DNA of 32,000 nucleotides from Granulicatella balaenopterae (GCF_900111135.1 NZ_FOGF01000015.1:1-32000), one strand, 5' to 3'; shown: positions 96 to 22,088, counted from the first letter of the stretch. The notes: generated from the letters alone by a model not told the origin. Numbers and translations are program-made.

Positions 96-962
96 CTAAA
101 GCTTCGGAGATTTCTTGGTACTATTTTTAACGATAATCTGCTGATCAACCAACTCAACTGATTTTACCACTGTATGATAATCTGACTTTACCTTTGATTT
201 TTCAAGTTTTGTTTTTATTTGTTCAACATTTTCTTGATTAATTGCTATTCCGTTTGCGATAAAGGACTCTTTATTAGATTTCATTATGAAAATAGCTGGA
301 TTTGTAGTATCTCTACTATCAGGGTCGTTTACATCATAAGTAAAATCAAGATACTTACGGGCTGTATCAGAATTATGTTGATCAAATCCTTCTAAATAAA
401 TACGCAAGGCTTGATTCTGACCATCTACCATATAAGTAACTGCAGCATCTCCTACATCAAATGGGATTTCTGCGGCTTCTTCTTGATTATCTATAGGACT
501 ATTAGTAGCTTTACAACTTACCTTAATGATAGCACCACTTGCCTCATATTCAAAAATAACGGTGTAAGTAGCAGGAGTATTATCCATTACCTCACAATCT
601 ACCATTTTATCCTTAAATGGTAAACTATCTGTTAGCTTACTGAAGTTATTTTTGGCTTTACCTTTAGCAACGACACCTGAAACTTCTACTATTGTTACTG
701 CTTTTGGAGTGGTTCTAGTAGTTGTTATCTCACCATCAACAGGCTTGTAGATGGCATTACCAGAACTTGTCTCGGTCAGGTAAGCTGTCTGGGCTTCGGC
801 ATAGGCATTACGCAAATTGGCCACTGTTACAGCATCACGAGACTTTTCTAAATGCTCTGAAAAGATTGGAATAGATAACGCGACTAACATACCAATAATT
901 GCCACAACCATTAATAACTCCGCTACAGTAAATCCTTTTTTATTTGTCATTATCCTCAACAT
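96..962 (-). CDS. Type IV pilin with an additional ~135-aa C-terminal module (288 aa from ATG 962)
   Basis: GGAGG lies 5 nt upstream of ATG 962, so the ORF-track start at 992 is an upstream extension. N-terminus MLRIMTNKKG|FTVAELLMVVAIIGMLVALSIPIF has Gly-1, Phe+1, Glu+5 and a hydrophobic helix. Residues up to about 160 (ORF numbering) align with the 145-aa pilin at 3523..3960 (VANLRNAYAEAQTAYLTETSSGNA; AKGKAKNNFSKLTDSLPF; ATYTVIFEYEASG). A further ~135 aa have no counterpart there. Confidence 0.8.
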   Translation of the reverse strand: MLRIMTNKKGFTVAELLMVVAIIGMLVALSIPIFSEHLEKSRDAVTVANLRNAYAEAQTAYLTETSSGNAIYKPVDGEITTTRTTPKAVTIVEVSGVVAKGKAKNNFSKLTDSLPFKDKMVDCEVMDNTPATYTVIFEYEASGAIIKVSCKATNSPIDNQEEAAEIPFDVGDAAVTYMVDGQNQALRIYLEGFDQHNSDTARKYLDFTYDVNDPDSRDTTNPAIFIMKSNKESFIANGIAINQENVEQIKTKLEKSKVKSDYHTVVKSVELVDQQIIVKNSTKKSPKL

Positions 963-994
963 ATCCCCTCCGTCTTTATAATAATTCAACAATG

Positions 995-1003
995 ATTATA
1001 CCA
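995..1003 (-). promoter_or_regulatory. Extended -10 element TGGTATAAT upstream of pilin 96..962
   Basis: Minus strand reads ctaaggtaTGGTATAATcattg about 35 nt upstream of ATG 962. There is no good -35, which is typical of extended -10 promoters. Confidence 0.4.
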
Positions 1004-1144
1004 TACCTTAGAAAAGAACTTGTGAACAGGATATGTCCTAGTGCTAGTAGTTCTTTCATTAGCAAAACTGCTATCCTTCCTCAAAAAGACGTCCATAACT
1101 TCACAAAAAAAGCGCCAACTAATTAGCTGACACTTATACTAAGT

Positions 1145-1654
1145 TTATAAGTTATCAAAATGATTGACAGATGCATTATCAAAAGCATATTTAGGAGATA
1201 TTGCATCGCAGGGTACGTCCCAATCTTTATCACCTTGTTTTTCAAATACAATCTCACCATCTTCATTAATATAAGGATACGACTTAATAGGATCACTATC
1301 ATCTGAATTAATAAGCACAAATACTCCCAAAATCTTACCTGACTTCTGCTCTCTACATGGTAATATTTCAGTATATTCATGAAAAGAGTTTGAGTTCCCG
1401 CTAAAAAAATTATCTTCATCAAATAATTTTTCTCTTTTAATATTGTAAAGATAATATTTAGGTCCTACTTCGCCACTTGATAGATACTCTTCATAACAGA
1501 TAGAGATACCACTTCTAATATTTGCTATATCTCTTGCATCTTTCGCCTTTTGTAATTGGCCATTAAATACTGGTATTGCAATGGCGACTAATACTCCAAT
1601 AATTGCTACAACAACTAATAATTCCGCTAAAGTAAAGCCTTTTTTATTCTTCAT
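1145..1654 (-). CDS. Type IV pilin paralogue (169 aa from ATG 1654; ORF-track start 1663)
   Basis: N-terminus MKNKKG|FTLAELLVVVAIIGVLVAIAIPVF. GGAG abuts ATG 1663 with zero spacing but lies 9 nt from ATG 1654, so the second ATG is preferred. The C-terminal globular part is unrelated to the other paralogues. Confidence 0.8.
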   Translation of the reverse strand: MKNKKGFTLAELLVVVAIIGVLVAIAIPVFNGQLQKAKDARDIANIRSGISICYEEYLSSGEVGPKYYLYNIKREKLFDEDNFFSGNSNSFHEYTEILPCREQKSGKILGVFVLINSDDSDPIKSYPYINEDGEIVFEKQGDKDWDVPCDAISPKYAFDNASVNHFDNL

Positions 1655-1738
1655 ATTTTTCATCTCCTACTATAGATAATTCTAAATAATTATATAGTTA
1701 TATTTTGTTGATATTTTATTTATCAATTATTCAAATTT

Positions 1739-1848: not shown

Positions 1849-2334
1849 TTATTCAAAAATGGATACATTATAACGATCTTGTTCAAAAGCTTGAATAATA
1901 TATAACTGATTGGATTGATTATACTTAAATTCTATCACATAGGATTTCCCCTTAGCATTATCTAATTGCTCCATTGTGCCATGAAAGAGTAATTTATGTG
2001 GTATCTCTTCGGCTAACCCACTAAAATCATTCTGTTTCGTTCCTTTAGCTACAATGTCTTTCACGACAATCATTGCCTTTGTATGGCCATCATCTCCAAC
2101 TTTATCAGGATAGGACACATAGATACAATCATTTGATGCACTAGATTCTGATTCAAAAACAGATTTCGCTTCATTTTCTGCATGGATAATTTGTTCAATA
2201 GTCGCTTCATCGCGTGAATGTTCGACATAATCAGTAGCACTAGGCCAGAATAAAGCAATAATCCCCATAGCTACAACTGATACTATCATTATTTCAAATA
2301 TGGTAAAAAGGTGTTTACTCATGAATGTTTTCAT
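1849..2334 (-). CDS. Pilin-like paralogue with a degenerate class III signal (Gly-1 replaced by Leu)
   Basis: The C-terminal two thirds align with pilin 2929..3411 (KGTKQNDFSGLAEEIPHKLLFHGTMEQLDNAKGKSYVIEFKYNQSNQLYIIQAFEQDRYN versus KGKNDNSFTELTEDISFKDVFHETMAKLDDGSGESYVIEFKYDQAGKLYLVQAFDQESYN). The N-terminus is MKTFMSKHL|FTIFEIMIVSVVAMGII. Phe+1 and Glu+5 are retained but the residue before Phe is Leu, not Gly. RBS AAAGGGGG precedes ATG 2334. Confidence 0.7.
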   Translation of the reverse strand: MKTFMSKHLFTIFEIMIVSVVAMGIIALFWPSATDYVEHSRDEATIEQIIHAENEAKSVFESESSASNDCIYVSYPDKVGDDGHTKAMIVVKDIVAKGTKQNDFSGLAEEIPHKLLFHGTMEQLDNAKGKSYVIEFKYNQSNQLYIIQAFEQDRYNVSIFE

Positions 2335-2485: not shown

Positions 2486-2788
2486 TTAATCGTTATCCTT
2501 TTTCCCTTTTGGCTCGAATCCCTTAACTAACACCATCTTGTCAACAGCAGAATTCCAAGGATAACTATCATAGTATACCACCCCATCCGAACTACTAGTC
2601 TCAGTTGGGTAAGCAGTTTGAGCTTCGGCATAGGCACTACCTAAATTGGCTACCGTTACTGCATCACGGGACTTTTCTAATTGATTTGTAAATATGGGGA
2701 TGGCGATGGCGACTACTACTCCAATAATTGCGACTACTACTAATCATTCTGCTAAAGTAAATCCTTTATTGTGCTTTTTGTCTACCAT
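2486..2788 (-). pseudogene. Pilin pseudogene: intact RBS, start and class III signal, interrupted by an in-frame TGA at codon 15
   Basis: Not in the ORF track. Manual minus-strand translation from ATG 2788 (GGAG 8 nt upstream) gives MVDKKHNKGFTLAE*LVVVAIIGVVVAIAIPIFTNQLEKSRDAVTVANLGSAYAEAQTAYPTETSSSDGVVYYDSYPWNSAVDKMVLVKGFEPKGKKDND*. The TGA at 2744..2746 sits where the paralogues have Leu (AELL), one substitution away from TTA. The product is also short (100 codons versus 145-170). DNA of the N-terminal half is very similar to pilin 96..962. Confidence 0.65.
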
Positions 2789-2928: not shown

Positions 2929-3411
2929 TTATTCGAGTATTTCTTCGTTATAACTTTCCTGATCAAAAGCTTGAACAAGATATAGTTTTCCTGCTTGGTC
3001 ATATTTGAATTCTATGACATAGGATTCCCCTGAGCCATCATCCAATTTGGCCATGGTTTCATGAAAAACATCTTTAAATGAGATATCTTCTGTTAATTCA
3101 GTGAATGAATTGTCATTTTTACCCTTTGCAATGAAATCTCTTATAACAACCATGCTTTTAGTCTTGCCATCATCTCCAACCTTATCTTGATAGGATACAA
3201 AGATTGCATGCCCATCTTTTGTGCTTTGATGATTTTGTTGGACTAATTGGGCTTCTTGATAGGCACTTTGTAATTCAGCGATTGTTGCTGCATCACGTGA
3301 CTGCTCTATTAAGTTCATGCAGATTGTTAGTGTTAATACTAGCATTACCCCAATAGCAGATATGGTCATTAATAATTCTGCCGTTGTAAACCCTTTTTGA
3401 TTATTCTTCAT
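2929..3411 (-). CDS. Type IV pilin paralogue (160 aa from ATG 3411)
   Basis: GGGAG lies 6 nt upstream of ATG 3411; the ORF-track start 3438 is an extension. N-terminus MKNNQKG|FTTAELLMTISAIGVMLVLTL, followed by the shared SRDAATIAELQSAYQEAQ helix. Confidence 0.8.
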   Translation of the reverse strand: MKNNQKGFTTAELLMTISAIGVMLVLTLTICMNLIEQSRDAATIAELQSAYQEAQLVQQNHQSTKDGHAIFVSYQDKVGDDGKTKSMVVIRDFIAKGKNDNSFTELTEDISFKDVFHETMAKLDDGSGESYVIEFKYDQAGKLYLVQAFDQESYNEEILE

Positions 3412-3522: not shown

Positions 3523-3960
3523 TTATTCTACTGCAATTGAAGAAATTTCTCCATTAGATCCATAAGTAAATGTTACAGTATATTTTCCTGGAGCATTATC
3601 CATTGCATCGAAACCAGATTGTTTATCTGCAAATGGTAAATCTGTTACTAACCCGCTAAAATCATCATCTTTTTTACCTTTAGCGATAACGTTTGTAACT
3701 GCTACTGTTGCTTCACCAGCTGTAGAAGTTGATGATTTATCTGTATAAGTAGCATTTCCACTAGTTGTTTCTGTCATATATGCTACTTGTGCTTCTGCAT
3801 ATGCTGAACGTAGGTTTGCTACTGTTACGGCATCACGTGATTTTTCTAATTGACCTGAGAAGATTGGGATTGAGATGGCTACTAATACCCCGATAATTGC
3901 TACTACTACTAATAATTCAGCTAATGTGAATCCTTTTTGTTCTTTTAATTTTTTGAACAT
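3523..3960 (-). CDS. Type IV pilin, best candidate for the major subunit (145 aa from ATG 3960)
   Basis: A perfect AGGAGG lies 7 nt upstream of ATG 3960; the ORF-track start 4038 is an extension. N-terminus MFKKLKEQKG|FTLAELLVVVAIIGVLVAISIPIF. It is the first gene after pilC, has its own promoter and the strongest RBS of the array, and is followed by a hairpin. This is the usual signature of a major pilin. Confidence 0.85.
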   Translation of the reverse strand: MFKKLKEQKGFTLAELLVVVAIIGVLVAISIPIFSGQLEKSRDAVTVANLRSAYAEAQVAYMTETTSGNATYTDKSSTSTAGEATVAVTNVIAKGKKDDDFSGLVTDLPFADKQSGFDAMDNAPGKYTVTFTYGSNGEISSIAVE

Positions 3961-4121: not shown

Positions 4122-5330
4122 CTACATAAAGTTATACATTGTGAAGATTGGTAAGTAGATGGCAATAACGATAAAGCCGGCGAATAAGGCTAGAAAGACT
4201 AGTAATGTCGGTTCTAACTTACTGATGGCTTGTTGCATAGCGTATGATGCTTCATTATCATAATAGTCACCAATTGTCAATAATGTGTCTTCTAATTCCC
4301 CGGTCTCTTCACCGATGGCACACATTTCTTTTAATGTATTAGGGAAATAATTGCAACGTCTAATGCATTCTCCTAATGACTTCCCTTCTTGTAAGGAAAG
4401 TGTCATACGACCGACTTCATCCCCTAAGGTACGGTTAGTCATTGACTTGGCAGTTGTCTGGATAGCATCATCAATACTTAATCCGGCAGTTAATAAAACG
4501 GCCATCGTAGTTGCGAATTGGCTTGAACCTGTTAGAAGATTAATCTTCCCGATGATAGGTGTTTTTAAGACAACATTACTCCAGAATACTTGGCCTTTTT
4601 CAGTTAATGCGCTTAATTTTAAGCCGGCAATGATAGCCCCGATTATAACCATAATGAATAGCCAGTGTGCCGCAAAAAATTCTGATGTTTTAATTAATAC
4701 TCTAGTCATCGCTGGTAATTCCCCACCAAAGTCCTTAAATACGGCTGATAGGGTTGGGATAACTTTTGCCATTACAATAATTAAGACAATAATAGCCACA
4801 ATCACCACAAAGATGGGATAAGTTAGGGCTTGTTTGACTTTTTGATTGGTCTTTTGCGATCTTGTAAAGTAAGTCTCCATCGCTTTAAAAGAATTAGCTA
4901 GAGTTCCTGAGCGCTCGCCTGCTCGCACCGTCTCAATAAATGTCATTGGTAAGCCTTGTCCATGTCGCTCCATAGTATCAGCAATTCCCATACCTTCTGA
5001 GATATCTTCTACTGAGGCTACTAGCATTTTCTTTAATTTTTTGTCTTCTGTTTGTTCAGCAATCATCGCCATAGCTCGTGCAATACCGACGCCTGATTTT
5101 AAGATTATGGCAAATTGTGAACACATCACTGCTAGATGTTTATGAGCTACTTTTGAGCTACCAACTTCCATATCTAGGATGCTATTGGTTTCTTTTACGG
5201 GATTGATTTTAGTAACAACTGGATACGTCGCTTTAATCTTATCAACCGCTTCAAATTCATCAAGTGCTTTGACGACGCCTTTTTTTTGAAGGCCTTCATT
5301 CGTTAAGGCACTATAGCGATAGGTTCTCAT
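4122..5330 (-). CDS. pilC: Type IV pilus platform protein PilC (GspF/T2SSF family)
   Basis: 402 aa with three hydrophobic spans. The GspF-type cytoplasmic domain is duplicated, with the GE(x)(S/T)GxL motif present twice (AGERSGTLANSF and IGEETGELEDTL). It sits immediately after pilB-pilT. Confidence 0.93.
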   Translation of the reverse strand: MRTYRYSALTNEGLQKKGVVKALDEFEAVDKIKATYPVVTKINPVKETNSILDMEVGSSKVAHKHLAVMCSQFAIILKSGVGIARAMAMIAEQTEDKKLKKMLVASVEDISEGMGIADTMERHGQGLPMTFIETVRAGERSGTLANSFKAMETYFTRSQKTNQKVKQALTYPIFVVIVAIIVLIIVMAKVIPTLSAVFKDFGGELPAMTRVLIKTSEFFAAHWLFIMVIIGAIIAGLKLSALTEKGQVFWSNVVLKTPIIGKINLLTGSSQFATTMAVLLTAGLSIDDAIQTTAKSMTNRTLGDEVGRMTLSLQEGKSLGECIRRCNYFPNTLKEMCAIGEETGELEDTLLTIGDYYDNEASYAMQQAISKLEPTLLVFLALFAGFIVIAIYLPIFTMYNFM

Positions 5331-5361: not shown

Positions 5362-6447
5362 TTATTTCCAAGTAGAGATTCCTGGCGGGCGTGTACCTAA
5401 ACGTTGCGCCAAAAAGTCTACATCCTGAGCATTGGCAAAGGCTGTTTCGCTTTTAATTTTATTGGCTCTTACTAATTCAGCCAAGCAATTATCCATAGTG
5501 ATGCTACCGATGTCTCCTGAAGATAAGATGGAAGATTTGATTTGCGGTGTTTTACCTTCACGTATTAAGTTTTTAATGGCGGGTGTTAAAATCATTGTCT
5601 CATAAGCTAGCACACGGCCATTTTCATATTTATTAGGTAATAATTGCTGTGATAATACGGCTTTTAATGTCATTGATAATTGCATACGAATTTGTTGTTG
5701 GCGATTCTCTGGGAAGACGCCAACAATACGGTCAATGGTATCTGAGGCAGAATTAGTATGCAAGGTTGCAAATACTAAGTGTCCGGTCTCAGCGGCAGTT
5801 AGAGCTGTTTCGATAGTGTCAAGGTCACGCATTTCCCCGATTAGAATAATATCTGGGTCTTCACGTAAAATAGCTCGTAAGCCGTCTTGATAACTAGCAG
5901 TATCTTCACCAATTGCACGTTGATTAATCACACATTGATCCGGTGTATAGATATATTCGATTGGATCTTCTAAAGTAATAATATGGTCTTGTCTTTTATG
6001 ATTAATTTCATTAAGTAGTGCAGCTAGGGTAGTTGATTTACCGCTACCAGTCTCACCTGTTACAAGAACTATTCCTTTTTGCCATTTTGTAAAGTCTTTA
6101 ACAACTGGTGGTAAGCCTAGTCTTTCTAATTCTGGGATGGTGCTACTAAGAATACGTAATGCCATTGAGACAGATCCTTGTTGGCGGAAGATATTAATTC
6201 TTAGTCTTTCATTAGCAAGGGTTGCTCCTAAGTCCACTTCACCAATCTCACGCATTTGTTGATATTTCACTCCTGCAAGTGCTTGAGCCATTTGTTCGCA
6301 ATCTTCATCTGTTAATATTTTCTCATCCAAATCGACCAAACGTCCATGTAAGCGGCATTTAACAGGTAAGCCTTTTACAATATGAATATCTGATGCACCC
6401 AAATTAGCAGCTTTTTCAACCAATTGTTCTATACGATTCATTGTCAC
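5362..6447 (-). CDS. pilT: Type IV pilus retraction ATPase PilT
   Basis: 361 aa. Walker A GETGSGKSTT, Asp box EDPIEY, Walker B DIILIGEMRD, His box GHLVFATLHT, and PilT signature AIKNLIREGK. Confidence 0.95.
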   Translation of the reverse strand: MTMNRIEQLVEKAANLGASDIHIVKGLPVKCRLHGRLVDLDEKILTDEDCEQMAQALAGVKYQQMREIGEVDLGATLANERLRINIFRQQGSVSMALRILSSTIPELERLGLPPVVKDFTKWQKGIVLVTGETGSGKSTTLAALLNEINHKRQDHIITLEDPIEYIYTPDQCVINQRAIGEDTASYQDGLRAILREDPDIILIGEMRDLDTIETALTAAETGHLVFATLHTNSASDTIDRIVGVFPENRQQQIRMQLSMTLKAVLSQQLLPNKYENGRVLAYETMILTPAIKNLIREGKTPQIKSSILSSGDIGSITMDNCLAELVRANKIKSETAFANAQDVDFLAQRLGTRPPGISTWK

Positions 6448-8443: not shown

Positions 8444-9064
8444 TTATAAGATTGGTTCATCTTCAATCGTCTGTGCTGTATCTTCTTTTGAACGGACTAA
8501 TCCTTCTGTTGTGTCAGCGCCTTTCATCATTTCAACGAAGACGATTTGCACGCTAGTAGTCCATGAAGATGCCTGATTATCTTTTCCATCAGTACTAGCA
8601 GCAATGCTAATATCATTAATTAAACAACGATTATCCCCTGTGTATAATTGATGGATAATTCTTTTGGCTGTCGCATAATCTTCTGTTGTAAACGAAAGAG
8701 CAACGGGACGTTTGATAGCGTCTCCTGTCTGCACTGCATCTGAAAAACTAATATCAAAACTTGTTGTTTGCGTCATAATTTGGTTTAAAGCATCTACTTC
8801 CGCTTGTAAATGATTATATGGATAGACTTGACCTAGACCGGCTTCTTGATTGTCTTTTATTTCACGTTCCATATTTTTATTTTGGTCACGACGCATCTGT
8901 TCAAAAGTAAGTTCCTGCATTAATTCATCTGTTTGATATCTATCAATCATATTGTGACAAGGCTTATAACAAGCAAAATAATAAATCGAAAATACTAACA
9001 TCACTACTGCAATAATAATAATAGCTTTTTCTTTTGCTTCTAATTTCTGTTTAAATTGCATCAT
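8444..9064 (-). CDS. pilO: PilO-like bitopic alignment-complex protein
   Basis: 206 aa. Short cytoplasmic N-terminus, a single TM (AIIIIAVVMLVFSIYYFA), a coiled-coil-like stretch and then a globular domain. Its start overlaps the pilN stop (ATGA). The assignment rests on position after pilM-pilN and on topology, not on strong sequence motifs. Confidence 0.6.
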   Translation of the reverse strand: MMQFKQKLEAKEKAIIIIAVVMLVFSIYYFACYKPCHNMIDRYQTDELMQELTFEQMRRDQNKNMEREIKDNQEAGLGQVYPYNHLQAEVDALNQIMTQTTSFDISFSDAVQTGDAIKRPVALSFTTEDYATAKRIIHQLYTGDNRCLINDISIAASTDGKDNQASSWTTSVQIVFVEMMKGADTTEGLVRSKEDTAQTIEDEPIL

Positions 9065-9678
9065 GATTCTTCACCCCCAACTTTAAAAGTAATGGAGATG
9101 GTGCCATCAACTGTTGTACTATCTTCATTATGATTAGCCGTATGAACCGTTACAAAGGTGACTTCTGGATCTTCTTGTACACGCTCAACAATTGCTGCCA
9201 TCTTCTCAAGAGTTGTCTCTTTAATCACGACATCCGCATGATTGTCATTTATATCATAAGAATCGACTACCGCATCAACGGCCACTTTTCGGTCAATTAA
9301 CTCAATCATCATCAAACGATTAGGCTGTAACTTTTCTTCATCAGTTAGACAACCATTCCCATAACGATTATAGTCATCACGAATATGAGCATATTTCTTA
9401 CTATCTTCTTGCAATGTTTGAATATTGCTTTCAATGGCTTGATAATTTTCTTTAGCTAGATAGGCCTCTTCAACTAAATCCACCACAAATACTTTCCCTA
9501 AACCAAGCAGCAAGATAATCCCCAAGATAATACTCACTGTCGTAATAATAGAGACCTTCTTCTGTTCGGCAGTTACAAAGTTGATTGTTTTTTTTGATGG
9601 ATATTGATTATTACTTGTTAAATCTTTGCTCCCTAATTGCTTTAAGCGGGAAAGAAAATTCGAATCCACTTGTTTCAT
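9061..9678 (-). CDS. pilN: PilN-like bitopic protein
   Basis: 205 aa. The cytoplasmic N-terminus carries KKTINFV, resembling the PilM-binding INLLP motif. It is followed by a TM (VSIITTVSIILGIILLLGLG) and a coiled coil. It lies directly after pilM and ends with TGA. Confidence 0.7.
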   Translation of the reverse strand: MKQVDSNFLSRLKQLGSKDLTSNNQYPSKKTINFVTAEQKKVSIITTVSIILGIILLLGLGKVFVVDLVEEAYLAKENYQAIESNIQTLQEDSKKYAHIRDDYNRYGNGCLTDEEKLQPNRLMMIELIDRKVAVDAVVDSYDINDNHADVVIKETTLEKMAAIVERVQEDPEVTFVTVHTANHNEDSTTVDGTISITFKVGGEES

Positions 9679-9689
9679 CTCTTACCCCC

Positions 9690-12644: not shown

Positions 12645-13364
12645 ATGCCCATGCCCCAAATAACCACTAACAAAGACAAGCGCTCATTGAAAAAGCGTTT
12701 AACCAATCAAAAAGGAGTCACATTACCACTTGCATTACTATTCTTTATTGTCTGCGCAGTCATTGGCTCTATTATCCTAGCAACAGCAACCGTAGCATCC
12801 AATCGGGTTGGTGGACTAGTCTCCCAACAACAACCCTACTACACCACCACTTCTGCTGCCAAAATGATGAAAAATATCTTAGAGGGCACCAGTTGCGAAT
12901 TGGTCTATATTAAAGAAGATGGCCAAAAAGTTAGCGAAAACATTACTTACCAAGGGGCTGATAGTCAATTACCACCCAAATTCTTAGTACAAGTAGTCGA
13001 GACTTATGAACATCTTACTTTAGGACAAGCTCTAGTCAAACAACCACTCAGCTTCAATCTAACGAGTAGCCAAAAAGAATTAAATCTAACAGAAGGTACA
13101 CTGGCACTAAGCTCCAAAGAAGACACAGCTTACGATATTCAGATGAGCTTCAAAACAGAAAATAAAAACAATGCCTACTACTGCCAATTAGTTGCGCCAT
13201 CTTCCGTTACAACAACCGAAGAATTGCTATGGTATGACGCAGCGGGTGTTCTAGTCGACAATCCAAGCGAAACTGATTTAAGCAAATGTACTAAAAAAAC
13301 AAAAATCACCACCACCATCAAATGGCCCAAAGCAACCATTCAACAAGCGGAGGTGCAAAACTAA
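12645..13364 (+). CDS. Minor pilin-like protein lacking Glu5 (GspK/PilX-like class)
   Basis: 239 aa. N-terminus MPMPQITTNKDKRSLKKRLTNQKG|VTLPLALLFFIVCAVIGSIILA has a basic leader, Gly-1 and a hydrophobic helix, with Leu instead of Glu at +5. It is the first gene of a three-gene operon with tight coupling. Confidence 0.7.
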   Translation: MPMPQITTNKDKRSLKKRLTNQKGVTLPLALLFFIVCAVIGSIILATATVASNRVGGLVSQQQPYYTTTSAAKMMKNILEGTSCELVYIKEDGQKVSENITYQGADSQLPPKFLVQVVETYEHLTLGQALVKQPLSFNLTSSQKELNLTEGTLALSSKEDTAYDIQMSFKTENKNNAYYCQLVAPSSVTTTEELLWYDAAGVLVDNPSETDLSKCTKKTKITTTIKWPKATIQQAEVQN

Positions 13365-13840
13365 TGACAAAAGAACTGACAAAACAAACTGGTGAGGTAC
13401 AATTTGATAAGAGGCAAGTACAAGATGTGCAATCTAATAAAGCGCAAATACAGGATGTGCAGTTTTTGAAAAATTCCGAATTAAAAGAGAATTCAGACGA
13501 CACACAGCGCAACCTCTATTTCACAGCAAAAGACAAACTAGCTAGCCAAAAAGGAGAATCAATCGCCGAAGCACTAATCGCCCTACTAATCGTGGCATTA
13601 GGTATCGTACTACTAGCAATCATGATTAGCGCCTCAACCCGCATCGTCAAAAAAAGTAATGAGCGACTAGAAGCCATGTATCAAGTAACCAATCAATTAG
13701 AAGAACAAACAGTCCCTCCTACTACTAATTCACTAACAATCGACCTTAGTGGTAGCACAAAGACTATCCAAGTGAATCAACACAGCGTAGAAGATAACAT
13801 GTATCAATTCAACTTATACTCATATGAAATGAACGAATAA
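13364..13840 (+). CDS. Minor pilin with an unusually long (64-aa) leader and a small mature domain
   Basis: GGAGGTG lies 8 nt upstream of ATG 13364, which overlaps the preceding stop (TAATG). The ORF-track start 13322 is an extension. The class III motif ASQKG|ESIAEALIALLIVALGIVLLAIMI (Glu at +5) begins only at residue 64-65. The leader contains VQFDKRQVQDVQSNKAQIQDVQF. Confidence 0.7.
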   Translation: MTKELTKQTGEVQFDKRQVQDVQSNKAQIQDVQFLKNSELKENSDDTQRNLYFTAKDKLASQKGESIAEALIALLIVALGIVLLAIMISASTRIVKKSNERLEAMYQVTNQLEEQTVPPTTNSLTIDLSGSTKTIQVNQHSVEDNMYQFNLYSYEMNE

Positions 13841-13869: not shown

Positions 13870-14400
13870 ATGAAAAAAAGAATCAAGCACAAACTACAAT
13901 CGACTAAAGGTTTCTCATTAGGTGAACTCCTGCTAACGATTTTAATCATCAGTTTAGCAGGAGTGGCCATGACAGGTGGATTTACCGTGGTGCATCACTC
14001 ATACAAAAAAATCACCCAGCAAGCCAATGCCGAAACCCTACTATCAACAACCATCAATAAATTCAATAATTACGTACGCTATGGCGAAGAGATCACTAGT
14101 AACAGTCCTACCAGTATCACCTTTATTGACCCAACTAATGGCATAAAAACAACCATTACAAACGGTAGTGATAGCACTGGAACTGGTGGCGCAAGCGTAA
14201 ATAACACAGGACTAATTATCAGCTACACAGGCGGATCACACCAACTATTAGCAGATAGCGCAATGAATGATGGCCTAGTTCCAGAAATTACAAACATTAA
14301 CAAAAACGGCCAAACCGTCAACTACACCATCACCATTAAAAACAATAAAGGTAACGAAATCACCAAACAAGCAGTCACCACCAGACTACTGAATGAATAA
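13870..14400 (+). CDS. Minor pilin (canonical class III signal)
   Basis: 176 aa. N-terminus MKKRIKHKLQSTKG|FSLGELLLTILIISLAGVAMTGGF has Phe+1 and Glu+5. It is the last gene of the plus-strand operon. Confidence 0.8.
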   Translation: MKKRIKHKLQSTKGFSLGELLLTILIISLAGVAMTGGFTVVHHSYKKITQQANAETLLSTTINKFNNYVRYGEEITSNSPTSITFIDPTNGIKTTITNGSDSTGTGGASVNNTGLIISYTGGSHQLLADSAMNDGLVPEITNINKNGQTVNYTITIKNNKGNEITKQAVTTRLLNE

Positions 14401-14600: not shown

Positions 14601-14778
14601 GTGGGAAAAAGACTAAGTGACAAACGCAAATGAAAAGCCCTACCTAAAATGTAACGCCTTCCCCACGCCGTTTTTCAGCGAAAACAAAAAGACGCTAGCA
14701 AGGATCATTCCCTACTAACGCCTCTATTAATTGCATCATAACGCCCAATGCAAAATCTAATCACATAATGAAATCATG

Positions 14779-17700
14779 CTAATGTTCTAATTTTGATACT
14801 GCTTCATGTGAAGAAGTCGCCTCACCTGAACTTGATTCTTGCGAGCTTGACGCTTCATTCGAATGAACTGTTTGTGATTTGGCACTTGATTCTTCATTCA
14901 GATTTTCTTCAGGCTTCGTTGGTTCACTTGGCTTTTGAGAAGAACTATCAGAATCTGCCTCAGCTGGTGCAATTGGTTTATTATTTGGCTTATTAACTGA
15001 ATGATTGTCTTCTTCATGTATTGGCTCTGTTGTAGAGTCTTCTACTGAGCGAGAATCAGATGACGAAGCATCGTCTACTTCTTCCAATAAAGAATTTGGC
15101 TGAACTAGTAATACACTTCTAGCTCCTCGTATTTGACTAGCATCAAAGCGAACTGTCAATGTTGCTACTACTTTTTTATTTGAAGGATTGTATTCATAAT
15201 CAACATCAATAGCTTTACTATCAATAGGATGTCCATCAACCGTAATATGATCTACAACAGACTGATCAAAAGTATAATCCCCAATTGGTTTAATTGTACA
15301 AGTCGTTATATTGCCAGCTTGCGTCTTATTAATCTTGAACTGCACATTCTTTAAAGGTGTATGATCTGGGAAATACCTAACATTAGTAATCGTATTCCCT
15401 GCTTTATTAAGATTAAATCCATCAATTGGTTTCAAGAAAATATTATTAGTAAATAATTCTTTTTTCAAGACATTATCATAAACACTAGCTACAGTTGGTT
15501 TTACCACATCATTTTCATGATAGACACTTATAAACGCTCCAAACGCACGAACATAGCGCGCAAATAATTCAAATGTATCATAGGAATTACCTTTATCATT
15601 ATAATTAATCCAACCTTTATGGTATTTCTTAGCTATTGTACCAAAATTACAATTAAATTCTTGATTTAAGTCATTTAGATTTAAACGTAAGCGAGTATTC
15701 CATGCAATATTATCAACAATATCAACAAAATACCCAATATTCTTTAATTCTTTAGTCTGTAATGAACCATTATTATCAAAGTAAGCAACTTTCATTCCTG
15801 ATAAATAGACTTTATTACGTCCCATCTCAATGGCTTCTTTAAAGGAACTAATTGTCACATTAATATCATATACAAACACATTTTTACCATATAATTCTAG
15901 ATTATTTACATAATAATCTCCATATAATGGTAATTGTGGTAATAATGTATGATCTGGTTGTTGACTAACAAAATACCCATAAGGATAATCAACACCTTTA
16001 AGAACATCACTATATGGATAGACCATACTTTGCTTGTAATCATTCCAAGCTGGAGTACCATCAGGATTCACTACTTCTTTCATTTTTTGAACAATTTGAT
16101 GAGATGAACCAGATGTTACGCCATTACCATCTAATGTTGTTTGCGAACCTTGGTTAGCTACACTAAAGCAATCTTTTAATTTTAGATTTGTATGATTGTA
16201 AAAACTTATGTAATTATTTTTATTTCTAACAGCAGCATAATTACGTTCTACAAGAAGTGAATACTGATCATAATTAAAGTAGTTGATCGAATTAATAAAG
16301 CCTGATATTTGTTTTGCATTAACATAAGAATCACCAATCGCAAAGGAATTCTTTATTATATGCTCATTACGTGTATCTTTTGCACCATCAGAATGGACTT
16401 TTGCAAAGCCGCTAAAAGTCTCCAATTCATTTTTTATATCTGCTGTATAATTAACATAACAAGAATCAATATAACTATAATTATTCATTACAAAGCCGGC
16501 TACATCCCCTTTATGCCAACGATCAATATTCGCTGCATTAAAATTCGCTGTAACAGATGAGCGGACGATTTTGTGATTATTTTGTTGAGCAAATCCAGCT
16601 ACTTCATCTGATAATTGACCATCTGACTTCTTACCAATTGTCACTAGTAGATAAAGATTACCATGCTCTCCAATTAATTCTTCAATTGCTTGTTGTGTAA
16701 CTTCTTCACGAGTGATTTTATTATTCGTTACAAATTGATATCCTTCAAAAATCGTTCCAGGGCGATACATCATACTTTGCACTAAAGCGTCATTCCCCCA
16801 TTGATAATTCGTTACATTAACATATTGTTTTAAATACTGTTCATACTTGCTACGATCACTATATAATTGACAACCTGAAATATCTCCATAGTTTTTCGTA
16901 ACAAATCCTGTTGACGCAATTTGTGAATTAACAATATCAATATCAGAAACTTCATGATTATTCACCATAACAGCACCTGGACCATCAATTGTACAGTGGA
17001 TAAGCGCTATATTGTGATGATTATTAGAATTCACTACTCCATCATTAATCGCTACTAGACCTGCTTCTGTGATATGACTATTTTTAACAAATGGATTCGT
17101 TATCGTACCAACATTTTTAAAGATAAAGCCATTTTTAGCGATTGTTGGGCAGTCGGTTACTTGAGCATTTGTTATTGTTGCATGGTCATTCCAACTAGCA
17201 AAGCCATTGCCACTAATACTTGGTGATGTCGCAAAACCATAACCGATTTTATGAACGAAACTATCTATAATCTGAGCATTTGGTTGATTACTAAAGACAA
17301 AGCCATCTCCATTAATTTTTGTGGTAATATGACCTGTTGCTTCAACCGAACTAGCAGAGATAATTTTCTGATTATAGGTTACAAAGCCTGCATTACTTGC
17401 CCCACTAGTCCCAATAATTGGACAATCAATGACGTGAGAATTGTCAATAATTCCTCCATTAGTAAAGATAAAACCACTATTAGAAATACTTATATCATTC
17501 GGATTAGCATAACCAATTCGTTCAACTTTACTAGCAGAAATCTTACCAATCCATGAATTAATATTAGCAAAACCATCCCCAAATATTTGAGTCGGTTGTG
17601 TACCATTAGATGTCACCGAACAACTAGTAATCTCACCATTATTTGTGAATACAAATCCAGCATTTGTAGTACCATCTTTCCCGATAGCTGGGCAGTCGAC

Positions 17701-20700
17701 TACTTGAGACTGGTTAATTGGTCCATTATTGGTAAATACTAATCCGGCTGCTTGTACAATACTTGTTCTAACCGCCATCAGATTATTGATTGTTCCTTTT
17801 CTGGCGTCTGTAGCAAATGTAGCTACTTCTTTTGTTTTAAAGACAGCTAACTTGTTCTCTGTTTGATTATTAGAAATAAATGGTAAATCAGCAAATTTTT
17901 GAAACTCTTTTTCCACCATGAAAGTGGTCATTTCTGGCATACTTCTTGGCGTAATTGTTTGATGATTAATGGTTGAATTCTCTACTGTACATCCAGCAAT
18001 GGAACCACCATTATGACTAGTATGAACCAATCCCCCAACCGTTGAAGCTACATCTGTTTGAAGGTGAGTCACGTTACAATTGGTTACAGAACTTTGCGAT
18101 TGACCGATTAATCCACCCACACAGAGGGCATTCGTTACTTGACTCATCATAACATCTGACACTGTAGAATGCGTTACAACAATGGATGCTTGTCCAATCA
18201 GCCCTCCTAGATATAATTGACCTGTAGATTGGATATTATTCATTGTTGTATTCGCTACCGAGCAACCACTGACATTACTTAATGTTTGCCCACTTAATCC
18301 ACCGACATACGTGGCCGTAATATTATCCATTGTGATATCAGACACCGTATTATCTGAAATAGTACCCGCATTGGTTAATCCGACCAAGCCACCGACATAT
18401 ATAGCATTAGTTGGATTTTCTATGCGAATATTAGACACCCTACAACGAGCAATCTCACTACCACTTGAATGTCCAACCAAGCCACCAATATGAGCTCCAT
18501 CTGCAAACTTAGTAGTAAAGTTTGATGCCTGACAGTTCGTGATTGTACCACTATTTATATTTGCAATGGCATTATATAAATGTACTTCTTGTGTGCCAAG
18601 ACAGTCAATCTCAACCGAGTCAATAATACCCGCACTAGCATTGGCTACACGACGAACTTTGGCGGCAGCTTGCTCATTTGGTGTTAATTGATATTCAAAA
18701 TTAAAATTACTTATTTTACCAGTATTGTTATCAGCGTAAGTTTGTTTATCTAATCCTTTAATCCAATAATGGTCTGCTTTATTTGTTGAAGTACTTACCG
18801 ATCCACTATGCGAACCATCAATGACACAAGCGACAGTTTTTAATAGTGAACTTTCAGTATAATTATAATCTCGTAAACCAAAATCAACATCTAACATTTG
18901 GTGAATCGTAACATCTTTGTTAGCCATTACTGCTCTATCTTGATGTGATACTTGCTGCATGGCTTCATATTGGTTTAAAGACCTTACTTCAAATTCTGTA
19001 CCAAGATTTGGTGACTCTGATTCTCCAACTACTTGTGCTGTATGTGCCAAGTATGGTATGTATCCGTATTTAGCGCTAAAGGTTCCATTTGATTCAATGG
19101 TTACTGTTAAACTATTTGGATTACTTGTTAATAATGGATATATCGTATCTTTAAACCAATTACTGTGATAAGTATTTTTGGCACTAGGCATTCCATCCAA
19201 GTGGTATAGTTGATACTCTTCAGTAATGTTCAGAGCTTTCTTAACGCCAGCGCTCAAATTCGTATTTGCAATAGCTCCTAAATTCGTATCAAAGGCTTGT
19301 TTACCTGTTAATGTCGTACTATTATCAAATGTTATTGTTACTTGATCAAGATTCCCAATTAAGACTAAAGCGTAGCCACTATCCACTAAGTATTTACCTG
19401 GTGTTGTATCAAATGCTACATTCTGCGTTAAAGTCGTTCCATCCCAAGAGTACGTTTGTTTTTCGGTTGGGTTGTCTTTATCAAAGTTGCCTTCAAAGTA
19501 ATATGTTTGATTGTCAAAAGTTTCATAATAGACTAAGCTTGTTTCGCATGTTATATCAGGAATTGGCCAGTCACCGTAATGCGTCTCGTCAATGACTGGG
19601 CGCAATGGGAAGGTTCCTGTTTGCTGGCTTGGATCTTTTAAGTCTTCATCATATGGATGTGCTGTATATGTTTTTTTAGCGCCGATTATATCGGTACTTG
19701 CTTTTGTGGCAATTGTTGCATCTTTATCATTGCCGACGATTTGTACTTCTGAAGAATTGATGCCTGATAAGACATAATTATTCTTATTAAGAGAGCTGAC
19801 ATTTTGGTCGACTTTACCAATGAATGTTCCAGCGTTATCATTGCTCTTATTAGCTTTAACCAAACCAGTCGCATAAGAATTGTCTACCTGGATGTTTTTA
19901 GCTTGTCCAATCAATCCACCAATATTTTGTTGACCATTTCCAGTTGCACTAACCGAAGCAGTTGTATAACAATTATTAATAGCTACTACTTGCGGACTAT
20001 TAACTGTCCCAATGAAGCCGCCAATATTCGTTGTTTTACCATTGGTTACATTTGCAGTAATATTACTTGCCGTCTCAGCATACTTCCCACCATTTATTGT
20101 ACGGCCAGCAACATAACAATTTTCGATTAAACTATCTTGCTGTGTCTGAATAATTTGTCCGATTAAGCCACCTGCAAAGGATTCAATTCCTGAACTATCT
20201 GATTGCTTAGCTTCGATGGTAACTAATGCATTAGAATAACTATCTTTAACCGTTAACTTTCCAGCACTAACTGCTCCGACTAATCCACCTACTGCAGGAT
20301 GTGTACCAGTTACTGTGACTGTCATATTCTTACCTTTTACAAAGGAGTCTTCAATAGTCAGATTATTTTCACCACTAACTAAGCCAACCATTCCACCTGC
20401 TACGCTATGTTTAGCCGCTTGTGCTTTGGTTGTTATATATGACTCTTGGCTTGTTTTTGTGTCATCTGCTTCTACAGAAGAATACTTAATCTCTAGGGAG
20501 CCACTTGTTTTAGCAACGAATCCTCCAGAAGTTTCTTGCCCGTTAATACTTGGATTTTTTAGTTGTAGATTTGACATTAATAATGAGCTATCCAATGTTA
20601 ATTCTCCAAACATCCCGGCATTTGCTTGATCTGTAATCGTTAAATTTTTGATTTGGAATTTGTTCCCATTATATGACGTTAAATGATTATTCGTAATGCT

Positions 20701-22008
20701 ATAGTAGCTATCTTGTGTAGCTGGCGTACCATCTGCTTTATAAATTGTAAACGATGAATCACTTTCCTTAGCTACTGCTTCAAATATGCGATAATCTAGT
20801 TGCTCGTCTTGTTCAAAGCTAGTCATATCAAGCCCCATTCCCTCAGCACACTCAACTTGTGTACTTGCCAATTGACTCGCATCCGTAATCGCATCTTCCG
20901 CCATACCAGAAATTGTTGGATCAAGATTTTCTAAGTGACGAATAGAAGAAACATTAGCCATTATAATAGTATTGCCATCCTTATCAGTGGTTGTTGTGAC
21001 TGAATGAAATAAACTATTCGTCGTTACTGGTTTTGTTTTAACAATTGGGGTTAATACCTCTTTACCAACTGCTTTCACAGTAATGGTAATATCTTCTCCC
21101 GGTGTGAAACCATCTTTTTTTCCAGTAGCTGTTTCAGCAAAAAGTTGTGCAAAATGCTTATCTTTTATCGTAATATCATCTAATATTACCGTATAAATTT
21201 TTTTACCCTGTTCTTTTTTTGCATTTTTTTCGTTTAGAGGAATTATCTTTTTAGCATGACTTGTTTCGCCTGTTACTTCGAGGCTAATATTGGTCTTAAT
21301 CTTATTAGTATCAGTTACCTTTACAATTAATTTATCACCATTTAATACATTAATAGTTGGTGTGTCTATTTTTTCTACTGGTGCCCCACTAACAGCACTT
21401 CCCCCATAATAACCAAGTGGGAATTTTTTACCACTTTTCTTTTGAGCTTTCATACGATCTTTAGGACTGCCACGATAGCCATCTCCCGGAAGAAAGCGCC
21501 CAGTCTCATCAGTTGCTGTTAACTCGTTTTCTTGGCCTTTTTCCGTATAAAACACAGCATAAACACTCGCATTTTTTACATTATATTCAATAATATACGA
21601 GCCTGCTTCACGTGCAACACCGTCAATTGCCCCCATCGGCAACATCTCTTTTAAAATCGTATTATCTAAAGTATCCTTATTAGCTGGACTATAGACAAGA
21701 TAATAATAATCACCTTCATGCCAATCCGCATCATCCATGTCATATGGCTTAGATGGCAGTTGTTCGCCTAAAGTAGTCGTATCTAATTCTGCTAATTCAC
21801 CATTTGCTTCCGCATAAGTTAAGTGGTTTTGTGCAGCAATATATATTTCTTTTGCTGTTTGATCCATCTCTAATTGCTTTAGGTGCTTATAATATCCGCC
21901 AACACCAACCACTGTAATGGCACACAAAATCCCAACGATTGCGATAACTGTCAATAATTCTGCCAATGAATATCCTTTCTTGCGTCTATTGCTATCAAAT
22001 ATCTTCAT
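14779..22008 (-). CDS. Giant (2,409 aa) modular type IV pilin / pilus-associated adhesin with GLUG-like beta-helix repeat blocks
   Basis: GGAGG lies 5 nt upstream of ATG 22008; the ORF-track start 22032 is an extension. N-terminus MKIFDSNRRKKG|YSLAELLTVIAIVGILCAITVVGV is a class III signal with Glu+5. The single uninterrupted ORF contains repeated xGG(L/F)(I/V)Gx motifs (VGGLVGA, AGGLIGQ, IGGFIGT, IGGLIGQ, VGGLVGL, VGGLSGQ, LGGLIGQ, VGGLIGQ) spaced roughly 25-50 residues apart. A second repeat series has (A/N)GF(V/I)FxN motifs. The C-terminal ~100 aa are acidic and Ser-rich. There is no LPXTG and no other TM segment. Confidence 0.85.
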   Translation of the reverse strand: MKIFDSNRRKKGYSLAELLTVIAIVGILCAITVVGVGGYYKHLKQLEMDQTAKEIYIAAQNHLTYAEANGELAELDTTTLGEQLPSKPYDMDDADWHEGDYYYLVYSPANKDTLDNTILKEMLPMGAIDGVAREAGSYIIEYNVKNASVYAVFYTEKGQENELTATDETGRFLPGDGYRGSPKDRMKAQKKSGKKFPLGYYGGSAVSGAPVEKIDTPTINVLNGDKLIVKVTDTNKIKTNISLEVTGETSHAKKIIPLNEKNAKKEQGKKIYTVILDDITIKDKHFAQLFAETATGKKDGFTPGEDITITVKAVGKEVLTPIVKTKPVTTNSLFHSVTTTTDKDGNTIIMANVSSIRHLENLDPTISGMAEDAITDASQLASTQVECAEGMGLDMTSFEQDEQLDYRIFEAVAKESDSSFTIYKADGTPATQDSYYSITNNHLTSYNGNKFQIKNLTITDQANAGMFGELTLDSSLLMSNLQLKNPSINGQETSGGFVAKTSGSLEIKYSSVEADDTKTSQESYITTKAQAAKHSVAGGMVGLVSGENNLTIEDSFVKGKNMTVTVTGTHPAVGGLVGAVSAGKLTVKDSYSNALVTIEAKQSDSSGIESFAGGLIGQIIQTQQDSLIENCYVAGRTINGGKYAETASNITANVTNGKTTNIGGFIGTVNSPQVVAINNCYTTASVSATGNGQQNIGGLIGQAKNIQVDNSYATGLVKANKSNDNAGTFIGKVDQNVSSLNKNNYVLSGINSSEVQIVGNDKDATIATKASTDIIGAKKTYTAHPYDEDLKDPSQQTGTFPLRPVIDETHYGDWPIPDITCETSLVYYETFDNQTYYFEGNFDKDNPTEKQTYSWDGTTLTQNVAFDTTPGKYLVDSGYALVLIGNLDQVTITFDNSTTLTGKQAFDTNLGAIANTNLSAGVKKALNITEEYQLYHLDGMPSAKNTYHSNWFKDTIYPLLTSNPNSLTVTIESNGTFSAKYGYIPYLAHTAQVVGESESPNLGTEFEVRSLNQYEAMQQVSHQDRAVMANKDVTIHQMLDVDFGLRDYNYTESSLLKTVACVIDGSHSGSVSTSTNKADHYWIKGLDKQTYADNNTGKISNFNFEYQLTPNEQAAAKVRRVANASAGIIDSVEIDCLGTQEVHLYNAIANINSGTITNCQASNFTTKFADGAHIGGLVGHSSGSEIARCRVSNIRIENPTNAIYVGGLVGLTNAGTISDNTVSDITMDNITATYVGGLSGQTLSNVSGCSVANTTMNNIQSTGQLYLGGLIGQASIVVTHSTVSDVMMSQVTNALCVGGLIGQSQSSVTNCNVTHLQTDVASTVGGLVHTSHNGGSIAGCTVENSTINHQTITPRSMPEMTTFMVEKEFQKFADLPFISNNQTENKLAVFKTKEVATFATDARKGTINNLMAVRTSIVQAAGLVFTNNGPINQSQVVDCPAIGKDGTTNAGFVFTNNGEITSCSVTSNGTQPTQIFGDGFANINSWIGKISASKVERIGYANPNDISISNSGFIFTNGGIIDNSHVIDCPIIGTSGASNAGFVTYNQKIISASSVEATGHITTKINGDGFVFSNQPNAQIIDSFVHKIGYGFATSPSISGNGFASWNDHATITNAQVTDCPTIAKNGFIFKNVGTITNPFVKNSHITEAGLVAINDGVVNSNNHHNIALIHCTIDGPGAVMVNNHEVSDIDIVNSQIASTGFVTKNYGDISGCQLYSDRSKYEQYLKQYVNVTNYQWGNDALVQSMMYRPGTIFEGYQFVTNNKITREEVTQQAIEELIGEHGNLYLLVTIGKKSDGQLSDEVAGFAQQNNHKIVRSSVTANFNAANIDRWHKGDVAGFVMNNYSYIDSCYVNYTADIKNELETFSGFAKVHSDGAKDTRNEHIIKNSFAIGDSYVNAKQISGFINSINYFNYDQYSLLVERNYAAVRNKNNYISFYNHTNLKLKDCFSVANQGSQTTLDGNGVTSGSSHQIVQKMKEVVNPDGTPAWNDYKQSMVYPYSDVLKGVDYPYGYFVSQQPDHTLLPQLPLYGDYYVNNLELYGKNVFVYDINVTISSFKEAIEMGRNKVYLSGMKVAYFDNNGSLQTKELKNIGYFVDIVDNIAWNTRLRLNLNDLNQEFNCNFGTIAKKYHKGWINYNDKGNSYDTFELFARYVRAFGAFISVYHENDVVKPTVASVYDNVLKKELFTNNIFLKPIDGFNLNKAGNTITNVRYFPDHTPLKNVQFKINKTQAGNITTCTIKPIGDYTFDQSVVDHITVDGHPIDSKAIDVDYEYNPSNKKVVATLTVRFDASQIRGARSVLLVQPNSLLEEVDDASSSDSRSVEDSTTEPIHEEDNHSVNKPNNKPIAPAEADSDSSSQKPSEPTKPEENLNEESSAKSQTVHSNEASSSQESSSGEATSSHEAVSKLEH

Positions 22009-22079
22009 AACTTCCTCCATACTAATCCCCATCTATTTTTAACGCTATTATGCGCATTCTAATTAATATACTCACTAAA

Positions 22080-22088
22080 ATTATACCA
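22080..22088 (-). promoter_or_regulatory. Extended -10 element TGGTATAAT upstream of the giant pilin gene
   Basis: Minus strand reads tttgtgTGGTATAATtttagtg about 70 nt upstream of ATG 22008. The same 9-mer occurs at 995..1003 and 1739..1747. Confidence 0.5.

Follow-up and report, generated by a model that had tools for sequence, protein, structure and literature searches.

Type IV pili of monoderm bacteria offer simple models of pilus assembly, in which the roles of the minor pilins and the delivery of effectors to the tip are open questions (PMC6916266, PMC9934059). In Streptococcus sanguinis, PilO is a bifunctional protein of 56.6 kDa that stands beside a PilN of 22.3 kDa (PMC6916266), and a length of 860 residues has been called extreme for a pilin (PMC8179133). 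Here we describe a pilus gene set that open reading frame (ORF) listing and profile searches place at positions 96-22032 of a 32,000-nucleotide stretch of DNA (NZ_FOGF01000015.1:1-32000; this whole stretch is called the window). We consider it likely that the locus is a complete type IVa pilus (T4aP) machine of a Clostridia-type lineage, horizontally acquired by a Granulicatella-like species of the Lactobacillales. The identities and intactness of its genes, their relationship to that lineage and their conserved neighbourhood are direct observations.

The locus encodes PilD, PilM, PilN, PilO, PilB, PilT and PilC, five intact pilin paralogues and one pilin pseudogene, together with four minor-pilin-like genes and a giant pilin of 2,409 residues that carries GLUG repeats (Table 1). 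The minus strand reads pilD-pilM-pilN-pilO, a gap, then pilB-pilT-pilC and the pilins; a plus-strand trio of minor pilins diverges from a minus-strand gene whose product lacks Glu5, and the giant pilin gene converges on the trio. The initial annotation had given the same content, order and strands, and its account of a full T4aP gene set with a retraction ATPase, no secretin and a monoderm host likewise finds support in the sequence. Only the non-coding pilO-pilB gap needs qualification: the 228 nt reported for it apply if the TTG at 8215 is the start of pilB, whereas public gene calls, which helped us to choose start codons, begin pilB at the ATG at 8197 and leave 246 nt. An identical locus is present in two independent public records (GCA_054054285.1 and run SRR4235419), and the frames agree.

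PilD scores 99.9 bits on A24_N_bact (cut-off 23) and 35.9 bits on Peptidase_A24 (cut-off 26.5), and its translation shows the cysteine motifs CTSC and CRYC as well as a GGGD aspartate box. PilB (T2SSE, 409 bits) and PilC (T2SSF, 175 bits) both lie far over the Pfam cut-offs; on the equivalog TIGR02538, PilB reaches 523.6 bits, under the strict cut-off of 675.65, and it contains a tetracysteine motif. PilT has the Walker A sequence GETGSGKST and the motif AIKNLIRE. The genome has no secretin, which extends the absence first noted at the locus to the genome as a whole. The nearby Fmt protein is 64% identical to Fmt of Granulicatella elegans and about 60% identical to proteins of Vagococcus, Enterococcus and Carnobacterium; from this we infer that the host is a Granulicatella-like member of the Lactobacillales and a monoderm.

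The Com pilus genes lie elsewhere in the genome, on contig C79, and contig C35 carries another prepilin peptidase. These genes bear on the idea that the window encodes a type II secretion system (T2SS), or a further pilus for DNA uptake (competence), instead of a T4aP, for which the weak ComGE, ComGG and GspK matches of the minor-pilin orthologues might be cited. The Com locus, however, has its own ComGA, pilins and peptidase, the PilM, PilN, PilO and PilT found in the window are absent from Com systems and T2SS, and there is neither a secretin nor a GspL-type protein; such an identity is very improbable.

Profile support, to which the initial annotation had tied its naming of PilM, PilN and PilO, differs among the three. 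PilM passes Pfam (PilM_2, 86.9 bits; cut-off 27) and scores 125.6 bits on TIGR01175 against a cut-off of 133. Direct Pfam evidence for PilO consists of a T2SSM match below cut-off (6.5e-5), and its Oscillibacter orthologue matches T2SSM; PilN has no direct match to Pfam or another hidden Markov model (HMM), and a word-based search with PilN returned PilN alone. Homologues of PilN and PilO at 26-28% identity were supplied by a metagenome locus (L084), and a profile built from two PilN sequences, those of the window and L084, collected 974 proteins at E <= 1e-3, with 659 remaining at E <= 1e-10. In several family members, which are 544-573 residues long, the profile matches the C-terminal third. 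When 96 members were scanned, PilM_2 and Pfam PilN were matched by three each and T2SSL and T2SSM by one each; those with PilM_2 are therefore PilM-PilN fusions. The family has an N-terminal motif, YPxKTxINL, with an invariant Asn (YPxKxxIN(F/L) in the window), at the position where PilN binds PilM. A similar core, (MILF)N(FYW), is part of the motif quoted for monoderms (PMC6916266).

The PilN of the window has one transmembrane helix and a C-terminal alpha-beta-beta-alpha-beta-beta domain. AlphaFold models of PilN and PilO each show one long helix followed by a domain of this topology, which in PilN has a predicted local distance difference test (pLDDT) score of 76-90. The PilO model matches Myxococcus PilO 3jc8_Oa (3.2e-5), Pseudomonas PilO 2rjz (1.1e-3) and 5uvr (template-modelling score (TM) 0.74), and the PilN model matches the same PilO set more weakly (4e-3 to 0.1), along with the C-terminal domains of PulM and EpsM (TM 0.65-0.76). 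A comparison of the PilN-family profile with PDB sequences was rejected as proof: it reached PilN 3jc8_Na at E 0.082, and its PilM matches came from fused members. We accept the three assignments, those of PilN and PilO as predictions from homologues, fusions, motif and modelled fold.

Judged by sequence identity, the machinery belongs to a Clostridia-type lineage and is closer to that of other Firmicutes classes than to that of its own order. Identity to pilus loci of the same genus or order is 27-30% for PilC and PilD, and PilM, PilN and PilO similarity was not detected in the locus comparison. A genome-collection scan with PilB returned only remote loci, at no more than 41% identity and without PilM/N/O or minor-pilin similarity; one metagenome locus and the surroundings of giant-pilin homologues supplied closer relatives. 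The metagenome locus (L084, 56% GC) is 59% identical in PilB, 61% in PilT, 51% in PilC, 54% in PilD, 37% in PilM, 28% in PilN and 26% in PilO, and that of Oscillibacter valericigenes (L106) 53%, 64%, 45%, 43%, 35%, 26% and 24%, respectively. For PilD, PilM, PilN and PilO, the corresponding values are 56%, 39%, 28% and 23% in a Lachnospiraceae metagenome-assembled genome (MAG; L087) and 44%, 38%, 30% and 31% in Stecheria (L107). With a further locus (L108) included, the ranges are 50-59% for PilB, 43-56% for PilD, 35-40% for PilM and 23-33% for PilN and PilO, with PilT at 61-64% in L084 and L106. PilN and PilO have about 190-210 residues each in all loci of the lineage.

Within the order, PilM of this lineage was found in none of 400 other genomes (82 genera, E <= 1e-10). 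Among 43 other species genomes of the genus, PilB is full-length in one (G035, 38% identity), and the sole PilM match, in the same genome, is remote (19% identity, 1.4e-7). The locus in that genome (L089, G035:C1:308000-327999) has pilins of 151, 196 (Glu5-less, G/STLP), 444 and 503 residues beside pilB-pilT-pilC; apart from that of the window it is the only pilus locus in the genus, and it resembles the S. sanguinis arrangement. The genome of the window measures 2.14 Mb with a mean GC content of 33.9%, and the machinery region, at 37.7%, falls in the 97th-98th percentile of 5-kb windows. Because the machinery is closer to other classes, is absent from relatives and shows a slight rise in GC, acquisition from Clostridia-like bacteria is likely, with a direction of transfer that we infer.

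The giant pilin joins a canonical prepilin N-terminus to GLUG repeats and an acidic, Ser-rich tail. It has 245 detectable relatives of 1,400-4,000 residues, many with N_methyl, GLUG or InlB-B-repeat matches, in Lachnospiraceae, Oscillibacter, Saccharofermentanales and Erysipelotrichaceae, where their annotation is generic only. We looked up the neighbourhoods of five. The giant gene ends a pilM-N-O row in L085 and a pilD-M-N-O row in L087; in L108 the order is pilB-pilC-pilin-pilD-M-N-O-giant, followed by genes for 223, 99 and 161 residues. In Oscillibacter the machinery operon diverges from the giant gene and its companions of 262, 114 and 167 residues, and in Stecheria the row reads 257-115-181-giant-143-pilD-M-N-O. 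Where flanking sequence is available, the trio beside the giant pilins (223-262, 99-115 and 161-181 residues) is orthologous by BLASTP to minor pilins 2, 3 and 4. Orthologues of minor pilin 2 (4.6e-14, 5.4e-12 and 9e-6) all lack Glu5 and all stand beside giant pilins, those of minor pilin 3 (strongest 3.4e-12) all start G/E..xE, and those of minor pilin 4 reach 1e-15 and 1.2e-10. Sub-threshold NCBIfam matches run in parallel: GspK for the Glu5-less member (0.0048 in the window, 1.7e-4 and 0.015 in orthologues), ComGE or PilV for the small member, and PilV or GspI for the third (PilV 7.9e-9 in one orthologue). Given this orthology and the linkage to giant pilins, the giant and three small pilins therefore form a genetic unit, which by these comparisons is conserved across at least three classes.

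This conserved unit gives the strongest support for a priming or tip complex, which the initial annotation had proposed from four minor-pilin-like proteins and one adhesin-bearing pilin. Three of the four small genes have orthologues beside giant pilins in other Firmicutes. The fourth, at 11888-12490, is an orphan: its product has Pro4 and no Glu5, no homologue was detected, including at the same position in related loci, and its N-terminus, G/ASLPV, is what suggests a minor pilin. We tried to equate it with a small gene upstream of pilD in L084 (179 residues), L087 (149) and L107 (143) and, finding no similarity, reject this for now. Against PDB sequences, minor pilins 1, 2 and 4 gave nothing meaningful and no similarity to the solved S. 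sanguinis PilA. In minor pilin 3, about 94 mature residues follow an unusually long leader of about 64 (13364-13555), which is hydrophilic and contains QxQDVQ repeats; in the Oscillibacter, Stecheria and L108 orthologues the leader has an ordinary length of about 10 residues.

The prominence of the giant protein raises another interpretation, that the machine is mainly a display or export device, a short T2SS-like pseudopilus stub that carries the 2,409-residue protein, and builds no long retractile motility pili. Among relatives the giant pilin gene is the one most tightly linked to pilMNO, lying directly downstream in L085, L087 and L108, and the minor pilins resemble GspK, GspI and ComGE. 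We nevertheless consider a stub unlikely, since the locus has a PilT over the curated cut-off, several major-pilin paralogues, and a canonical major pilin with its own strong terminator after pilC, as in expressed type IVa loci.

That major pilin is most plausibly pilin A, encoded directly after pilC and the best candidate for the major subunit. It has a class III signal peptide (Gly-1, Phe+1, Glu+5) and matches solved type IVa major pilins at 2e-10 to 1e-3. Pilin E is bimodular, being 56% identical to pilin A over 149 residues before about 135 extra ones. Pilin C, a paralogue of pilin B (45% identity over 154 residues), is otherwise intact and has Leu at position -1 in place of Gly, on account of which PilD probably does not cleave it. 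Between pilins B and C lies a pseudogene with a TGA at 2746 right after Glu5, its frame truncated after about 100 codons. The only Pfam domains among the pilins are N_methyl and GLUG, with no adhesin-type domain (vWA, lectin). At the left border, a repeat of about 130 nt, present in at least 12 genomic copies at 88-100% identity, several of them at contig ends, ends the contig both here and in the other public assembly. It covers the last 11 codons and the stop (96-98) of pilin E, whose C-terminus it may have altered.

These lesions could suggest that the island, imported recently, is now silent or in decay and gives the host no functional pili: one pseudogene has a stop after Glu5, one paralogue lacks Gly-1, a repeat runs over the end of pilin E, no other carrier of the lineage turned up among 400 genomes of the order, and the exact locus occurs in just two public records. 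Those two records are independent and identical, however, and the ten genes matching the S. sanguinis essential set (PMC6916266) as well as PilT are intact, with catalytic motifs and plausible ribosome-binding sites, so that we rate a silent island as quite unlikely and retain a working T4aP machine as the preferred reading.

How extension by this machine might be controlled is suggested by PilB, whose residues 2-25 (561-residue numbering) fit the 24-residue MshEN motif for cyclic di-GMP (c-di-GMP) (PMC11731258); a second copy deviates at the central Gly. On NF053729, the NCBIfam model of this motif, PilB scores 69.6 bits (cut-off 38). Seven GGDEF proteins, six with an intact GG(D/E)EF, are encoded on contigs C56, C37, C58 and C28 of the genome; the other 43 species genomes of the genus, of which 28 reach at least 90% completeness, gave no GGDEF match. 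As judged from these 44 genomes, no other species of the genus has c-di-GMP signalling or an MshEN-PilB pilus, and c-di-GMP control of pilus extension is a reasonable inference. On contig C56 (62468-69780, minus strand), a pilin gene (268 residues, QNG/FTIAE) is followed by genes for a membrane EAL protein, a HAMP-GAF-GGDEF protein and a second, EAL-like membrane paralogue. The pilin of this row is canonical and apparently bimodular, and some 350 bases separate its gene from the end of the contig. GGDEF/EAL and PAS sensor genes flank the giant-pilin loci of Stecheria and L108, where the lineage is again tied to c-di-GMP signalling. Even with E values up to 1 allowed, Rfam gave no riboswitch or other regulatory RNA in the window, a c-di-GMP riboswitch included.

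Transcription signals may point to a finer division than the three modules originally described. The two promoter-like sites that had been named are both present, TTGCGA-18-TATAAT with TG (TG-n-TATAAT) at 11649-11620 upstream of pilD and TGgTATAAT at about 22090-22081 upstream of the giant gene. Such sites are no commoner than chance in this AT-rich DNA (56 found against 55.1 expected, and 48 against 49.6, from shuffled sequence), and because the count equals the shuffled expectation, promoter scans carry no weight. Strong terminators follow pilin A (3486-3452, z -4.3) and the giant gene (z -3.3), a further one follows pilin B (2905-2881), and a terminator-like hairpin follows pilin D (1135-1110). 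A hairpin with a U7 tract lies downstream of the gene at 11888-12490, for which a terminator of its own had been claimed. No terminator was seen in the pilO-pilB gap, nor a clear one for the plus-strand trio. The terminators after pilins A, B and D and the giant gene suggest more than three transcription units, and the pilin array probably holds several units of its own.

Table 1. Features of the pilus locus, in window coordinates. Slashes separate leader and mature residues of pilin N-termini; a dot marks a feature without strand.
Feature	Position	Strand	Evidence
PilD prepilin peptidase/methyltransferase	10721-11494	-	A24_N_bact 8.8e-29, Peptidase_A24 1.1e-8
PilM	9690-10694	-	PilM_2 1.6e-24
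PilN, 205 aa (predicted)	9061-9678	-	family, fusions, motif, fold
PilO, short form, 206 aa (predicted)	8444-9064	-	T2SSM 6.5e-5 (sub-threshold), fold match
PilB extension ATPase, 561 aa	6512-8197	-	T2SSE 1.7e-122, MshEN 3.7e-17
PilT retraction ATPase	5362-6441	-	TIGR01420, 434.9 bits vs cut-off 319.1
PilC platform protein	4122-5330	-	T2SSF 5.9e-52, two stretches
Pilin A, 145 aa, QKG/FTLAE	3523-3960	-	N_methyl 1.4e-7
Pilin B, QKG/FTTAE	2929-3411	-	sequence, public gene calls
Pilin pseudogene	2486-2788	-	N_methyl match with one internal TGA
Pilin C, KHL/FTIFE	1849-2334	-	sequence
Pilin D, KKG/FTLAE	1145-1663	-	N_methyl 3.8e-9
Pilin E, KKG/FTVAE	96-962	-	N_methyl
Orphan pilin-like gene, SSG/ASLPV	11888-12490	-	N-terminus
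Minor pilin 2, GspK-like, QKG/VTLPL	12645-13364	+	GspK 0.0048, orthologues
Minor pilin 3, QKG/ESIAE	13364-13840	+	PilV 4.8e-4, orthologue 3.4e-12
Minor pilin 4, TKG/FSLGE	13870-14400	+	orthologues 1e-15, 1.2e-10
Giant modular pilin, 2,409 aa, KKG/YSLAE	14779-22008	-	N_methyl, GLUG, 245 relatives
Promoter-like site upstream of pilD	11620-11649	-	consensus match only
Extended -10-like element upstream of giant pilin gene	22081-22090	-	read from sequence
Intrinsic terminator after giant pilin gene	14688-14725	-	17-bp stem, z -3.3
Copy of multi-copy repeat, ~130 nt	1-130	.	at least 12 genomic copies

The right flank of the window consists of ordinary chromosomal genes, encoding PriA, Fmt, RsmB, a PP2C phosphatase, a PASTA kinase, a CAMP factor and a choline-binding C39-like protein. 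The last two lie next to the locus, at 22304-25204; one is a homologue of the CAMP factor Cfa, and the other combines choline-binding repeats with a C39-like peptidase domain. Choline-binding-repeat and CAMP-factor proteins are typical surface or secreted factors of oral Gram-positive bacteria.

In the machine that we envisage, PilD would cleave and methylate the prepilins, and PilM, PilN, PilO and PilC would make up the assembly complex in the membrane. Pilin A would be polymerised by PilB, whose MshEN motifs probably place it under c-di-GMP gating; the filament, which may also take up paralogues B, D and E, would be retracted by PilT. Priming would fall to the conserved module, in which minor pilins 2 (GspK-like, without Glu5), 3 (small) and 4 are joined by the pilin module of the giant protein. 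This module would end at the pilus tip and display the GLUG-repeat part as an adhesin, in parallel with the PilA-PilB-PilC model of S. sanguinis and the GspK-capped complex of diderms (PMC9934059).

Several points weigh against reading the locus as a complete and acquired T4aP machine. Both structural models are modest (mean pLDDT 61 and 64) and derive from two-sequence alignments, the fold-match E-values of PilN are just 4e-3 to 0.1, and PilN, PilO and the minor pilins all fall under curated HMM cut-offs. The GC content of the machinery is only mildly raised above the genome mean, and synteny on the stkP side varies within the genus (genes downstream, three congeners), so that no empty site is shown. 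The co-occurrence of GGDEF proteins and type IV pili concerns a single genome. In the array, the pseudogene, the Leu-1 paralogue and the repeat over the end of pilin E are signs of decay, and since the left border is the contig end, further genes may belong to the locus. Piliation, retraction, the tip location, c-di-GMP control and the direction of transfer are predictions from the genes.

Systems of this kind are known, but the literature searched gave no precedent for the variant, for its occurrence in the Lactobacillales or for the c-di-GMP genes that accompany it. Paper searches on GLUG pilins and Granulicatella pili found nothing relevant, and the pilus loci of the relatives carry generic annotation, with no study of them found. 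If our reading is true, the locus is a clear example of a complex surface machine moving between Firmicutes classes, coinciding in one genome with the only c-di-GMP cyclases seen in the genus. It further provides a natural case of a pilin far above the surveyed sizes that is tied genetically to three conserved small pilins and a short-PilO machine, and the cultured carriers of the same module, Oscillibacter valericigenes and Stecheria sp., make experimental study possible. More tentatively, and with rather less confidence than we place in the locus itself, we suggest a widespread, unstudied Firmicutes T4aP lineage with a fixed four-part tip module (a Glu5-less GspK-like pilin, pilins of about 100 and about 170 residues, and a pilin of 1,800-3,400 residues with a GLUG/InlB-B-repeat fibre), in which retraction might pull on the giant adhesin, and which might have been imported here together with a c-di-GMP network, as the seven GGDEF genes against none in 43 congeners would suggest. 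On that tentative view, a lactic acid bacterium would have gained surface motility or adhesion under c-di-GMP control, a capacity missing from its relatives.

Among known systems, the core minor pilins of diderms (GspH/I/J/K; PilH/I/J/K) with PilC/PilY1 offer a likeness in that an operon of small pilins, one Glu5-less, is linked to a very large adhesin-like protein with the same proposed role in priming and tip display. The differences are that the effector here is a pilin and not a beta-propeller, that only three small pilins are conserved, and that the GspK, PilV and GspI matches are all below curated cut-offs. PilB fits the motif of the MshE/PilB ATPases (PMC11731258), with an inter-motif spacer of seven residues instead of five, and c-di-GMP binding is predicted from sequence. 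The Com pilus has a ComGA-type ATPase of about 360 residues and comGB-GG without PilM, PilN, PilO or PilT, in contrast to the window, which has all four, while the Com locus of this genome is the one on C79. The T2SS differs in its outer-membrane secretin and its GspL and GspM; the genome here contains no secretin.

The initial annotation had likened the locus to that of S. sanguinis, and as a list of functions the likeness holds: both are monoderm T4aP systems without a secretin, with PilD, an extension ATPase, a platform protein, PilM, PilN and PilO (the last two as predicted here) and PilT (PMC6916266, PMC8179133, PMC9934059). Each also combines two or more major-pilin paralogues with modular pilins bearing adhesive modules and with a small Glu5-less pilin that has Pro4 (PilA there, PMC9934059; G/ASLPV and G/VTLPL here), the last being a likeness of motif only. 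The likeness ends with the short PilO, the missing vWA and lectin modules and the Clostridia-type machinery. PilO here has 206 residues, the size of PilN (205), and not 56.6 kDa; vWA (PilB) and lectin (PilC) modules occur in S. sanguinis, whereas no adhesin-type Pfam domain is found here; the modular pilin is about five times larger, and the gene order differs. The S. sanguinis-like locus of G035 is 27-49% identical to the window in PilB, PilT, PilC and PilD, with no PilM, PilN or PilO similarity detected in the locus comparison.

The loci of O. valericigenes (GCA_021531435.1), Stecheria sp. CLA-KB-P133 (GCA_033971865.1) and the Lachnospiraceae MAG (GCA_028692395.1) share the machinery lineage of the window and its short PilN and PilO, and in the first two a giant prepilin stands beside orthologues of minor pilins 2-4. 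Their hosts are Clostridia or Erysipelotrichia and not Lactobacillales. In these relatives the order is pilB-T-C-pilin(s)-pilD-M-N-O, whereas here the halves are swapped, with pilD-M-N-O before pilB-T-C; likewise, the giant gene is co-directional with or adjoins pilO in the relatives and is convergent on the minor-pilin trio in the window. Of the features that define the giant-pilin lineage by synteny, the window has the short PilN and PilO, the giant prepilin beside the machinery, and the trio of about 240, 100 and 170 residues. The locus thus falls outside the S. sanguinis type and belongs to a Clostridia-type lineage, so far unstudied, with a short PilO and a module of one giant and three minor pilins.

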